The notes beneath the pieces were generated by a model. The model was not told where the DNA came from, did not search any database, and saw only the letters and a program-made list of their open reading frames with translations. The translations under genes were made by a program, and so were the position numbers. From the NCBI RefSeq assembly GCF_021602585.1, contig NZ_BQIP01000011.1, forward strand, positions 100,413 through 130,412: a DNA stretch of 30,000 bases, in the 5' to 3' direction. The stretch is from Pseudomonas faucium (lineage in GTDB: Bacteria > Pseudomonadota > Gammaproteobacteria > Pseudomonadales > Pseudomonadaceae). This document shows, in pieces, positions 1 through 10,250 of this stretch (positions within the stretch are counted from its first letter, which is position 1; the number at the start of each line of letters is the position of its first letter).

Positions 1-614
1 GCCAGGGTGATTACAACGCCGGCAGCTCCAGCTGGGTGCGGGTGGCACAGGCCGGGGCCAGCGGTGGCTTCGGCAGCATCCAGATACCGCGGGTGGGTGA
101 CGAAGTGGTGGTGGTGTTCCTCGAGGGCAACCCCGACCGGCCTTTGGTCATCGGCAGCGTCTACAACATCGGCAACCCGCCGCCCTGGCCACTGCCGGCG
201 AACAAGACCCAGAGCGGAATACTCACTCGCTCGATCAATGGCACGGGCCGTACCGCCAACTTTCTGCGCTTCGAAGACAAGGCCGGCGCCGAACAGGTCA
301 GCCTGCACGCCGAACGAGACCTGTACACGGAAGTGGAGGCAGACGACAGGCTCATCGTTGGTGGCAACCGCACCATCAAAGTAACGGGCAAGCAGGCGCA
401 AACCATCAGGCTGGAAACCAGTATTGCGGTGGAAGAAGGGTCTTACTTCGTCACTGTCGACCAGGGGCATATCAACTTGAGTGCCGCGCAGTCCATCACC
501 CTCGAAGTGGGGAAGAGCAAGTTGGTGATGAACCAGGACGGGACCATCAAGTTGTCTGGCGTGGTGGTGGATGTGGATGGCAGCACGATCATCAATCTCA
601 ATAAATCCGAGTGA
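1..614 (+). CDS. vgrG: T6SS spike protein VgrG, C-terminal part (5' end upstream of window), copy A
   Basis: The frame is open from the window start to TGA at 612-614. The translation WVRVAQAGASGGFGSIQIPRVGDEVVVVFLEGNPDRPLVIGSVYN plus a repetitive beta-helix tail is the conserved VgrG gp5-like region. It is identical to 6059-6672, which continues a VgrG N-terminus. Confidence 0.9.
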   Translation, partial: QGDYNAGSSSWVRVAQAGASGGFGSIQIPRVGDEVVVVFLEGNPDRPLVIGSVYNIGNPPPWPLPANKTQSGILTRSINGTGRTANFLRFEDKAGAEQVSLHAERDLYTEVEADDRLIVGGNRTIKVTGKQAQTIRLETSIAVEEGSYFVTVDQGHINLSAAQSITLEVGKSKLVMNQDGTIKLSGVVVDVDGSTIINLNKSE

Positions 615-633
615 AGGGCAGGGAGCCGTCTTT

Positions 634-1224
634 ATGTATCGCAAAAGTATCTACGACCGGATTTTCGAAAGGCGTGAGGAACAGGAACGCATCGAAAACG
701 AACGCGTCGCACAAGAGGAGATGAAACCACCAGCGCCGCAGCGTTTCTTGGCGAATGAATTCAGTTTTGTACGGGCCTCGGATTTGAAAGATAAAACTTT
801 TCATGTCTTTACACTGACAGACATAGGGCCGAGCCCTTTTTCATTAGTGGTCGGGCGCTCACCTGTGCATTCAGAAGATGATCTGGAAACCCTCGCCCAG
901 CAGTTACTGGGTGAATTGAAAAAATCGCTTTCGCATGTGCAGTGGATACAGCCTATTTCACCGACGCAGGTGGCAGGAGTTGATGCGCGTTGCGTCGAGT
1001 TTCGGTGGCGGCAACAAGGCCAGCTAGTTCATCAGGTGCAGGTCATGTTTATGCACCACGATGAGCACAATCGCCCTTTACTCGTTCAGTTGACGGGAAC
1101 CAGTAACCATCCGAAGGGTATGACGCCCGAAGAGCGGGGTGCGTTCGATGCTGTGGTTCAGAGCTTGGAGCTTCGCTCGCTCCCGGTTCAAGACGAGGCA
1201 CCACAAAAGCCTAATGAGGCATGA
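634..1224 (+). CDS. DUF1795/DcrB-like T6SS effector chaperone (Eag family), copy A
   Basis: ATG at 634 lies 8 nt after GGGAG (621-625). The 196-aa product shows the DUF1795-like pattern (FSFVRASDLKDKTFHVFTL..SLVVGRSP..VAGVDARCVEFRWRQQGQLVHQVQV..LVQLTGT). It sits directly between vgrG and a prePAAR effector, and its stop overlaps the effector start (ATGA at 1221-1224). Confidence 0.75.
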   Translation: MYRKSIYDRIFERREEQERIENERVAQEEMKPPAPQRFLANEFSFVRASDLKDKTFHVFTLTDIGPSPFSLVVGRSPVHSEDDLETLAQQLLGELKKSLSHVQWIQPISPTQVAGVDARCVEFRWRQQGQLVHQVQVMFMHHDEHNRPLLVQLTGTSNHPKGMTPEERGAFDAVVQSLELRSLPVQDEAPQKPNEA

Positions 1225-2441
1225 GTGCCGCAGCGAGGCAGGGGGATGCGATTGAGCACTCTAGTGCGTTTGGTGGCCTGCTCTCGGGGCTGGCGGTCGG
1301 AGCGGGGGCAGCCCTTATCGGTATCGCTATCGTCGGAACCGGCGGCATAGGTGCGGCGGCGCTGGCAGCTATGGTAGGTGCGGGGGCTACGACAGGTGCC
1401 GGCATTGGCCAGCTCATAGGCAGACTGTCATTTGCATGCAGGGAGACCGGGCAGATTGTTTCGGGATCGGACAACGTCCATATAAACGGCCGTCCTGCGG
1501 CCAGGGCGCATTTGGACACTGTTCAATGTGATGATCATCCCGGCGCTATGGGGAGAGTGGCTCAAGGAAGTACTTCGGTTTACATCAACGGTCAGTCTGC
1601 TGCACGCGTGGGGGACCGAAGCGTATGCGACGCGAAGATCTGCGTGGGTTCCGCAAACGTATGCATCGGCGGCGGAACTGCGACCACGGATGAGATAGAA
1701 CCTGAAGTGCCTGTTGTGCTAGAGCGCGCCTTGATGGCAACCGGCCTTGCCAGTGCCTTAGTGCTGGCAAGTCCAATACTGGTAGTCGCAGGTATGGCCG
1801 GCGGCATTGTAGGAGGGATGGCGGGGCATTGGGCGGGTGGAGAACTTTATGGTGAAGGATCTGATGGCCAGAAGTTGATGGCCCTCGGAGGCACCTTACT
1901 TGGAGGGGGGATTGGGGCAAAGGGAGGGAAAGCCTTCGAAGCTCGCTATGAATTTAAGGTTCAAGGGCTGGGTTCTAATCTCAGTAACGTAAAGGTCTTG
2001 TCAAAGGCGGATGCTGGGCAAGGGCGAAGCTATCAGCGCAAACTGAAGTATTTTAGTAATCAGGCAGTTGAATGGAGAGCGACACGCTCGGCAGGTACGG
2101 ATTATACTTATAAAGTTTATCAGCGGAGAGATATAGATTGGCAGCAGGTGCGATCGGGAGGGGATAAGCGGTTCGTTGGAAAGACCAACAGGGAAGCTGC
2201 TGAAAGAGGGTTGTCTCCACAGCTTTCCGATGGAAGCTTCGTAACCCTTCACCACTTAGGGCAGAAAGCACCTGGGCCGCTGGTAGAGGCCAGTACTCGT
2301 TATCACGGTGTAGGGCGTTATGGGCAGAACGTTTTGCACAGTCAGTATGGAAGGAGTAAACCTCATCCTGACCTTAAGATCGACAGGAAAAAATTTGACG
2401 TCGATTGCCGCGAGTACTGGCAGTGGCGGTTGAATAATTGA
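1221..2441 (+). CDS. Class II prePAAR / PAAR-domain T6SS effector with C-terminal LHH-type HNH/EndoVII-like toxin, copy A
   Basis: - prePAAR motif AARxxDxxxH: residues 4-13, AARQGDAIEH.
- First TM region: Gly/Ala-rich hydrophobic stretch at about aa 15-68.
- PAAR-like core: about aa 75-160 (VSGSDNVHINGRPAARAHLD..VYINGQSAARVGDRSVCD..ANVCIGG).
- Second TM region: hydrophobic stretch at about aa 170-245.
- C-terminal toxin: about 145 aa containing VTLHHLGQKAPGPLVEASTRYHG.

The toxin family call is pattern recognition only. Confidence 0.85.
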   Translation: MSAAARQGDAIEHSSAFGGLLSGLAVGAGAALIGIAIVGTGGIGAAALAAMVGAGATTGAGIGQLIGRLSFACRETGQIVSGSDNVHINGRPAARAHLDTVQCDDHPGAMGRVAQGSTSVYINGQSAARVGDRSVCDAKICVGSANVCIGGGTATTDEIEPEVPVVLERALMATGLASALVLASPILVVAGMAGGIVGGMAGHWAGGELYGEGSDGQKLMALGGTLLGGGIGAKGGKAFEARYEFKVQGLGSNLSNVKVLSKADAGQGRSYQRKLKYFSNQAVEWRATRSAGTDYTYKVYQRRDIDWQQVRSGGDKRFVGKTNREAAERGLSPQLSDGSFVTLHHLGQKAPGPLVEASTRYHGVGRYGQNVLHSQYGRSKPHPDLKIDRKKFDVDCREYWQWRLNN

Positions 2442-2455
2442 GTTAGGAGGGAGTT

Positions 2456-9021: not shown

Positions 9022-9441
9022 ATGTTCTACTTTATAGAGCCTGAGGTCGCTGGAGGATTGGGTGAAGGGGCGGTCATCGACACTGCAATTACACCACCCT
9101 ATGTAAGTTTCTTGGAATATGAGTTTTCTGGATGGTTGGGCGATGAATTGCTTGAGGCATTTCCCTGCTTTGTGATTACGCAGCGTTTGGCTAGGGCGCT
9201 GACGCAGCATCAACTCACAGGCTTCACGTTAGATGTTGCAGCGGTAAAGAAAACTGAAGAATTCAAGATAATGCATCCATTGATCGTGCTTCCTGACTTC
9301 CTATGGTTGAAGGTACATGGAGTTGTAGGTTCCTCTGACTTTGGCATAGCTCAGGATCGTCGGCTCGTTGTGTCTGAGACAGCACTGGTTATTCTTCGAG
9401 GCTACGGACTGAATTATGCAGATGTTGAGCTGTATCCATAG
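9022..9441 (+). CDS. Hypothetical 139-aa protein, possible immunity, copy B
   Basis: Identical to 2964-3383. Confidence 0.5.
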   Translation: MFYFIEPEVAGGLGEGAVIDTAITPPYVSFLEYEFSGWLGDELLEAFPCFVITQRLARALTQHQLTGFTLDVAAVKKTEEFKIMHPLIVLPDFLWLKVHGVVGSSDFGIAQDRRLVVSETALVILRGYGLNYADVELYP

Positions 9442-9585
9442 CTTGAGTTGGAGGTCAAGGCAGGCATGACGTTGTGAGAGATTAAATGGCTAGAGATTCA
9501 CACTGTTCCCCTTGTCTAGCGCTGGGCCAAGTGAGGCTTCAAGCAAGGCTCAAAGATAGGATATAGGGTCGGGGGTGTTGAGTGC

Positions 9586-10065
9586 ATGGGTTTTAAGAAT
9601 GCAACTTACGCAAAAATTGCAGATTTGCGCGCTCGGTTGAATGAAGGCGAAATATATCTGGGGCCGCCTGCAACGATGAGTGATATAGCAAATTTAACCA
9701 ATGCTGTGTGGGGCGAAATGGCCGCTGCGCTACCTCCTGAGTATTTGGATTTTCTCCAGAATTTCGACGGCCTAGTTGCGTGTGGTGTTTTTATTTATTC
9801 AAGTCGCACGCGCACGAAAGCTGATGGAAAATTAGCGCGACATGATTTTCTTGGAATGAATAGGCTTGGGCGTGAATCGGGCTGCATGGATGATTTTTTG
9901 GTTTTCGGAGGCAGTGACTTAGATGAGTATGTGTTGGACTTGGTGCGAGGTAAGTATCAGGTGCGCGACAGAGTCGCTTTTGATAACGTGTATGAAGAAT
10001 TTGACACTTTTGAAGGTCTGTTGGGGCATATGGTTGATTTGATTGTTCATTGGTCGAAGAATTAA
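9586..10065 (+). CDS. Second SUKH-family immunity-like protein, copy B
   Basis: Identical to 3528-4007. Confidence 0.7.
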   Translation: MGFKNATYAKIADLRARLNEGEIYLGPPATMSDIANLTNAVWGEMAAALPPEYLDFLQNFDGLVACGVFIYSSRTRTKADGKLARHDFLGMNRLGRESGCMDDFLVFGGSDLDEYVLDLVRGKYQVRDRVAFDNVYEEFDTFEGLLGHMVDLIVHWSKN

Positions 10066-10220
10066 AAATACCGACAGATAGGAATGAGGGAGGGTGAAAG
10101 TAGGAGGGTCGAGTGGGGATGATTGATGTGGAAATCTACCCTGGTTCAGGGGGCGCTATGAATGACTCGACAGTAGCGAACATTTTAGGATCGCACGGTA
10201 AGCGTGTTTGGATATCTTCA

Positions 10221-10250
10221 GATCAAGCGCCGCGCGGGCGGCGCTCGATC
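10221..10250. terminator. REP-derived hairpin between the convergent immunity gene and eamA-like gene
   Basis: gatcaagcgccgc / gcgg / gcggcgctcgatc gives a 13-bp stem with one mismatch and a 4-nt loop. There is no U-tract, so terminator function is inferred only from its position between convergent genes. Confidence 0.4.

Follow-up and report, generated by a model that had tools for sequence, protein, structure and literature searches.

Does the genome of Pseudomonas faucium, of the P. putida group, carry two tandem copies of one vgrG island, a gene set associated with type VI secretion (the T6SS), and if it does, how did the second copy come about? The question is posed by 30,000 nucleotides of assembly GCF_021602585.1 (contig NZ_BQIP01000011.1, positions 100,413 to 130,412; hereafter the window, in which all positions are counted from the first letter), where a vgrG gene, a chaperone gene, an effector gene and three immunity-type genes are encountered twice before position 10238. 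The reading that we favour, and consider likely from the assembled sequence, is that an auxiliary vgrG island of the T6SS has in reality, and very recently, been duplicated in tandem through the repetitive extragenic palindromic (REP) segments at its ends. Tandem duplication by recombination between repeats is an established process, and its REP-mediated form has long been documented.

Identity and extent of the two copies

A full base-by-base comparison of positions 1-4180 with 6059-10238 gave 0 mismatches over 4,180 bp, and the open reading frames (ORFs) of the two copies are all identical. An earlier note on this DNA had proposed both this identity and the head-to-tail arrangement of the copies, and had called for a full pairwise alignment; that alignment, now run, bears out both. 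At an offset of 6058 the identity falls to the random level (~25%) directly past 4180 and 10238, a sharp boundary with no extension of the match beyond it, and the 6,058-bp spacing was also recovered by a repeat search, in which only a 300-nt reference copy was listed. A perfect repeat of 4.2 kb cannot be due to chance. The period of 6,058 bp is the sum of the island (4500-10238; 5,739 bp) and one REP segment (4181-4499; 319 bp), and the two units are adjacent and equally oriented; between the repeats lie the 319-bp REP segment and the 5' part of the vgrG of unit 2, and nothing else. Both the exact identity and this unit structure are direct observations.

The left end of the repeat coincides with the window edge; 4,180 of the 6,058 bp are seen twice, and 4181-6058 once. 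Copy 1, the left part of which lies beyond that edge, is presumably a complete unit, and the number of units at the locus is at least two. The idea that the window opens inside an earlier period draws indirect support from a short-read contig (L002, described below) that is unbroken at the point matching window position 1, but it is for the 4,180 bp alone that two copies are seen. The earlier description of the duplication as perfect likewise holds for these 4,180 bp and not for the right edge, where the terminal copy is without 274 bp of the REP segment. The right-hand junctions of the two copies are unlike: copy 1 runs into a full 319-bp REP segment, and copy 2 into only the last 45 bp of one. 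Distinct junctions of this kind would not be the product of a simple assembler stutter. The features at and beside these junctions are as follows.

4181..4499, no strand: join-point between copy 1 and copy 2, a 319-bp REP-doublet (REPIN-like) segment with inverted arms at 4214-4310 and 4373-4469
4169..4180, + strand: 12-bp GCGCCGCGCGGG at the right end of the island, a direct repeat of 4443-4454
10227..10283, no strand: terminal junction, where the island end meets what is left of the right-hand REP segment, its last 45 bp (274 bp being absent)
10283..11167, - strand: eamA-family transporter gene (PF00892), which forms the conserved flank to the right of the insertion site

The REP segment and the states of the site in relatives

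The two arms of the join-point segment are 97 nt long and 92% complementary, and the segment is predicted to fold into a very stable hairpin (-148 kcal/mol, z=-16.9). The REP core GTGGGAGCGGATTTATCCGCGA is found at 4242-4263 (- strand) and 4420-4441 (+ strand), the only two copies within the 30-kb window, and the segment in this way shows the two inverted REP cores in a long imperfect hairpin that are one mark of a REPIN, another being a multitude of copies dispersed over the genome, together with a RAYT transposase.

Relatives were sought through the neighbouring eamA gene. Its product (294 aa) is identical in ten contigs (L004-L013), and the look-up gave three long contigs with flanks that are 98.7-99.1% identical to the window. 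Two simpler states of the site were observed directly. In L005 and L006 (98.8-99.1% flank identity) the site is empty, with only a ~290-bp REP segment, homologous to window 4178-4499, between treS (assigned by TIGR02455) and eamA. In L004 (GCA_032083405.1; 98.7% flank identity) it holds a single island, in the order treS - REP (319 bp) - island - REP (290 bp) - eamA. The join-point segment of the window is homologous to the entire treS-eamA spacer of L005 and L006, and to both island flanks in L004. The comparison with sister strains that the earlier note had recommended has thus produced the empty and single-copy states of the site, and no relative in the collections with two units. A scan of species-representative genomes found no relatives carrying the effector, and the right end of the island had 0 hits in the JGI metagenome contigs scanned.

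A vgrG island is also present at the same eamA/treS site of P. plecoglossicida NBRC 103162 (L029, 3658-9641), with a VgrG that is 79% identical, a different toxin end and an immunity array of one 139-aa-type homologue and two YrhA-type ones. Because both L004 and L029 also hold vgrG islands there, the site is a recurrent auxiliary vgrG locus, a hotspot for such islands in the P. putida group.

These distributions bear on a second explanation of the identity, namely that the duplication is older and has been held identical by ongoing gene conversion between the units. Zero divergence is compatible with homogenisation, and homologous direct repeats of 6 kb are, as a general matter, good substrates for conversion. 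Set against this are the missing two-unit relatives and the rarity of the island with this effector, which occurs in few contigs and in none of the species representatives; moreover, recombination ordinarily removes tandem repeats as long as these far sooner than they accumulate differences, and a long-lived array would need continuous selection, which nothing suggests, especially with vgrG frameshifted (see below). We consider this explanation very unlikely. Two independent insertions of the island were rejected as an origin on the perfect identity of the units and the single REP segment between them.

Two further observations concern the REP elements of this site. In the REP segments beside eamA in L005 and L006 (locus coordinates about 10885-11176), the 92-bp centres of the doublets are inverted relative to each other (97.8% identical once one is reverse-complemented, as against 63% in direct comparison), and the hairpin loop has flipped between its inverted arms in these closely related strains. 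In addition, ~128 bp with a different REP pair (GTGGGAGCGGGCTTGCCCCGCGAA...) are present in L004 (6045-6172) and L005, and absent at window 14996-15002 and from L006 and L007; the right flank is polymorphic here for the insertion or deletion of a REP pair.

Anatomy of the join-point

With a single-copy locus at hand, the edges of the join-point can be compared with those of a singly inserted island. On its left (island end | GGAGGGTGG) the join-point has the same edge as the right-hand REP segment of L004, and on its right (AGCCCCT | GGCAACACC, toward vgrG) the same edge as the left-hand REP segment of L004. Of the 45 columns that separate the two REP copies of L004, the first (4304) is right-type in the join-point, 41 are left-type and 3 match neither. 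All of this is directly observed. Because the join-point has the left edge of the right-hand segment and takes its body and right edge from the left-hand segment, an origin by unequal crossing-over is suggested; the hybrid nature of the repeat itself has modest support, L004 serving as a proxy and one site being right-type. Among the three options that had been put forward initially (very recent amplification, gene conversion or an assembly artefact), very recent amplification is the best fit, with a join-point as expected for unequal crossing-over between flanking REP segments. The k-mer TCAGATCAAGCGCCGCGCGGGGAGGGTGGTTTGG is diagnostic of the tandem join, or of a junction with a full right-hand REP segment (REP_R).

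The terminal junction next to eamA

Within the window the 12-mer GCGCCGCGCGGG is confined to three places, 4169, 4443 and 10227. The 274 bp missing from the terminal segment are the equivalent of 4181-4454 and lie exactly between the 12-bp direct repeats that bracket the hairpin; a precise deletion between short direct repeats on either side of a long hairpin is a typical slippage product. The 57 nt of the terminal junction are 95% identical to 4443-4499, with 3/57 positions differing from the join-point tail, and the tail of the remnant is right-type, identical to the sequence beside eamA in L005. The junction folds as a small hairpin, and its k-mer, diagnostic of the deleted form, is TCAGATCAAGCGCCGCGCGGGCGGCGCTCGATCTCACGGCC.

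Across each of the two junctions a 51-codon ORF leaves the island end (4061-4216 and 10119-10274), giving two C-termini; it is called by gene callers in short-read contigs and is probably spurious.

A terminal copy without a full REP segment could also be explained by a RecA-independent duplication at microhomology, in which the island end (...GCGCGGG) was joined to the left REP edge (...GGTTGGG|GAGGG) after the right-hand REP segment had already been deleted in the ancestor, and both sites do share 3-4 nt of G-rich microhomology. However, the junction of island end and GGAGGGTGG is already the normal right boundary in the single-copy L004 and L095, such that its base-for-base recreation would be a coincidence, and the first informative site of the join-point is right-type. 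The chance that the duplication arose in this way seems to us very slim.

Returning to REP-mediated duplication, the ancestral locus would have had the order treS - REP_L - (vgrG-eag-effector-imm1-imm2-imm3) - REP_R - eamA, REP_L being the left-hand segment. Unequal homologous (RecA-type) crossing-over, with REP_R of one sister chromosome paired with REP_L of the other, would then yield an island - hybrid REP - island product with a unit of 5,739 + 319 = 6,058 bp. The 274 bp would have been lost later from the REP_R beside eamA, through slippage between the 12-bp repeats bracketing the hairpin. Both the recombination pathway and the order of events are what we infer from these junctions; the simplest order places the REP x REP duplication first and the terminal REP deletion second, because the junction of island end and GGAGGG pre-exists in the single-copy L004 and L095.

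Short-read contigs and the possibility of an artefact

The draft GCA_013373935.1 (L001) is the genome of the P. faucium type strain (PMC11585281). Short-read contigs of DRR231907, apparently from an identical strain, agree with the window at every base of 10,940 bp of right flank (L007) and 5,828 bp of island (L002). The latter contig reads through window 4444-6058 straight into 1-4213, again without a mismatch, and is unbroken at the point matching window position 1. Contigs L001-L003 and L007 all break in REP arms. An attempt to read copy number or branching from contig end points (4213 in L002, 4203 in L001, 4238 in L003 and 4240 in L095) was rejected: L095 runs 63 nt past the expected L004-type branch, and these contigs are not strict unitigs. 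Separately, three bases of the right REP arm upstream of vgrG differ from the window at positions 28-31 of L001 (window 4399-4402; ATCGGGG versus ACTGTGG), which could mean that L001 shows the REP copy of the left flank, that the strains differ, or that several REP copies were collapsed into one consensus.

These contigs are where an assembly artefact has to be considered, that is, one island between two near-identical REP segments, with the resulting graph loop walked twice. In an assembly graph, a single-copy island with identical REP flanks, as in L004, forms the same cycle as a genuine tandem array, and it would likewise give perfect identity, and in every short-read assembly the island is one stand-alone contig of 4.3-5.9 kb that ends in REP arms. 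On the other hand, REP arms break short-read contigs at any copy number, and L008-L013, from other samples, end at the same place. What an artefact explains poorly is the difference between the two right junctions: a clean 274-bp deletion between 12-bp repeats, followed by a right-type tail, is not creatable by graph traversal, and two independent errors at one locus would be needed, a false interior duplication and a false deletion. We judge an artefact of this kind unlikely.

Several points nevertheless weigh against a real duplication of the origin proposed here, and two of them also fit an artefact. L002 passes 4180 into the REP segment and does not branch where the island ends, and the other type of right junction is found in this assembly alone; the ORF specific to the deleted terminal junction (10119-10274) is on record nowhere, a result that is uninformative, the relevant contigs breaking before its stop codon. 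Furthermore, the junction of island end and REP segment is also present in single-copy genomes (L004 and L095), and because it is normal for single-copy islands, L001-L003 are no proof of the tandem join. The crossover model takes L004 as a stand-in for the ancestor and relies on a single right-type site, and neither the left flank nor the left part of copy 1 falls within the window. Overall, the same-strain short-read contigs are compatible with one or several copies and neither prove nor refute the duplication.

Genes of the island

The genes of the two copies, all on the + strand, are listed below.

1..614, + strand: copy 1 of vgrG, truncated by the window edge to its 3' part (the gp5/OB and C-terminal trimerisation regions) and identical to 6059-6672; Pfam Phage_base_V and Gp5_trimer_C, matched on the copy-2 ORF
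634..1224, + strand: Eag-type chaperone of the DcrB/DUF1795 family, 196 aa, copy 1, identical to 6692-7282; PF08786 DcrB, E=1.3e-17; a 196-aa gene call is present in L001-L003
1221..2441, + strand: predicted effector, 406 aa, copy 1, with the order prePAAR, transmembrane domain (TMD), PAAR, TMD and LHH nuclease, identical to 7279-8499; Pfam PAAR_motif, LHH and a weak prePAAR_I
2456..4007, + strand: three immunity-type genes, copy 1, namely SUKH/SMI1_KNR4 (2456-2920), a 139-aa product (2964-3383) and a YrhA-family product of 159 aa (3528-4007); Pfam, and NCBIfam NF038335 for the third
4836..6672, + strand: vgrG copy 2, frameshifted, as ORFs 4836-5480 (214 aa) and 5473-6672 (399 aa)
6692..7282, + strand: Eag-type chaperone, copy 2 (PF08786)
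7279..8499, + strand: predicted prePAAR-PAAR-LHH nuclease effector, copy 2 (Pfam, motif and hydrophobicity)
8514..10065, + strand: three immunity-type genes, copy 2, namely SUKH/SMI1_KNR4 (8514-8978), a 139-aa product with no family match (9022-9441) and a YrhA-family product (9586-10065)

The gene content that had been claimed for the island, a vgrG, a chaperone, a PAAR toxin and immunity-type genes, was confirmed by the ORFs and Pfam. The effector carries a prePAAR motif (consensus AARxxDxxxH) as AARQGDAIEH at residues 4-13 (Pfam prePAAR_I, 21.4 bits, under the 25-bit cut-off), a PAAR domain at residues 76-140 (Pfam, E=3e-23) and a C-terminal LHH nuclease domain of the HNH/EndoVII type at residues 322-405 (PF14411, E=5e-12). 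Hydrophobic stretches at 14-56 and 163-204 lie on either side of the PAAR domain, as given by Kyte-Doolittle hydrophobicity, which is a crude predictor of transmembrane segments. The Eag chaperone gene is directly upstream of the effector gene, with overlapping stop and start codons. In its predicted products and their order (vgrG-eag-prePAAR effector-immunity), the island has the architecture of a Tse6-like module. A promoter scan of 3900-4900 found no sigma-70-like site, which is uninformative on separate expression of the units.

Elsewhere in the window, a 61-nt direct repeat (79% identity; 26615-26675 and 29078-29138) probably represents motifs of two paralogous membrane-protein genes and is unrelated to the duplication.

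A frameshifted vgrG

An intact cognate vgrG, as is found upstream in Tse6-like modules, is lacking from the unit. The Phage_GPD domain (Pfam) is divided over the two overlapping ORFs of 214 and 399 aa, and relative to the intact 612-aa vgrG of L004, with which 98% of the alignment columns match, gap columns counted, the only internal gap is the loss of 2 bp between 5459 and 5460 (TTT to T). The same split is called in L001 (NCBI draft), L002 (Logan assembly) and L014 (ENA metagenome scaffold), and because these assemblies are independent, the frameshift is a real mutation; sequencing error was rejected as its origin, the split being shared by Illumina-based and metagenome contigs. The island's own spike gene is thus a pseudogene, and the module is probably unable to use its own VgrG. 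This makes doubtful the earlier suggestion that amplification supplies extra dosage of a working T6SS toxin-delivery module.

Cargo exchange and the immunity genes

Like vgrG, the last immunity gene and the island end are conserved relative to L004 (97% nucleotide identity), whereas the chaperones of the two islands share 70% of their amino acids and the effectors 55% over the N-terminal 290 residues, with unrelated toxin ends (window 6692-10065 versus L004 11347-13630). The GC content is 44-52% for the chaperone, the toxin end and the immunity genes, as compared with 61-62% for vgrG and 67% for the chromosomal flank (window 6692-10065 versus flank), and this difference suggests that the cargo was exchanged horizontally; a low GC content is consistent with such acquisition.

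The only immunity gene of L004, just downstream of its own and different toxin gene, is the homologue of the third immunity-type gene of the window. The cargo has been swapped, and the third (YrhA-family) gene has the look of an orphan that stems from an earlier toxin. Of the three immunity-type genes that had been counted in each copy, all are present, but they are probably one cognate SUKH immunity gene and two orphans, with the third related to a gene that would protect against another toxin. A cognate immunity gene followed by orphans is the usual pattern of polymorphic toxin loci.

Consequences of the proposed duplication

As predicted from its sequence, the duplication would supply a second set of genes encoding three immunity-type proteins, a Tse6-like LHH nuclease toxin and the chaperone of that toxin. 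Since the vgrG of the unit carries a frameshift, a benefit, if there is one, more probably lies in the dosage of immunity or toxin genes, or else there is none at all and the duplication is a neutral transient. Extra dosage of a working weapon is a weak idea, and a doubling of immunity genes or a neutral transient state is as likely. A more elaborate possibility is that three or more units extend upstream and are kept by selection, the REP doublets around this recurrent site serving as an inbuilt means of amplification and the dosage of immunity or toxin being adjusted in this way for competition between bacteria. Were this so, the unbranched passage from island end to REP segment in three independent short-read contigs would reflect tandem joins that outnumber the single terminal join. 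We consider it quite unlikely.

If the duplication is real, it would be a clean natural case of extragenic palindromic repeats allowing rapid and reversible change in toxin and immunity copy number, with the empty, single-copy and duplicated states of one site visible in near-identical genomes. There is also a practical warning, in that REP-flanked islands create loops in assembly graphs and the copy number of such islands wants checking against reads.

Relation to known systems

Our literature search returned papers of a general nature on T6SS effectors with their immunity partners and on tandem duplication, and nothing that marks this case as exceptional. Both the mechanism, repeat-mediated tandem duplication, and the module, a Tse6-like island with orphan immunity genes, are well known, and neither a new mechanism nor a new protein family is involved.

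REP-mediated tandem duplications of the chromosome were reportedly described in Salmonella by Shyamala, Schneider & Ames 1990 (EMBO J), and gene amplification more widely is said to be covered in reviews by Sandegren & Andersson 2009 and Reams & Roth 2015. As in Salmonella, the copies here are identical and head-to-tail, the join-point lies in an extragenic palindromic repeat that is found on both sides of the duplicated segment, the unit length matches the spacing of the repeats, and instability of the array is to be expected. The repeats, however, are two copies of a locus-specific REP doublet of ~320 bp rather than dispersed REPs of ~35 bp, and the duplication is seen in a natural genome assembly, not under laboratory selection, with one of the flanking repeats later largely deleted.

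The second point of reference is the Tse6-EagT6-VgrG1a-Tsi6 system of the Pseudomonas aeruginosa H1-T6SS and the prePAAR effectors, reportedly the subject of Whitney 2015, Quentin 2018 and Ahmad 2020. The order of vgrG, a DUF1795/DcrB chaperone, an effector (prePAAR, TMD, PAAR, a second TMD and a C-terminal toxin) and immunity is the same. Unlike Tse6, which is an NAD(P)+ glycohydrolase, the toxin here is a predicted LHH nuclease (PF14411) with SUKH-type immunity; the vgrG is frameshifted, and two further immunity-type genes follow.

Finally, polymorphic toxins are said to have been treated by Zhang et al. 2012, and orphan immunity genes and cargo swapping in V. cholerae by Kirchberger et al. 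2017. Orphan modules are also on record for contact-dependent inhibition (CDI) and Rhs systems (PMC3150448). The island resembles these vgrG, Rhs and CDI islands in its conserved ends, its replaced middle and the ancestral immunity gene kept downstream of a new toxin/immunity pair; the only addition that we see is that the whole module would then have been duplicated in tandem.

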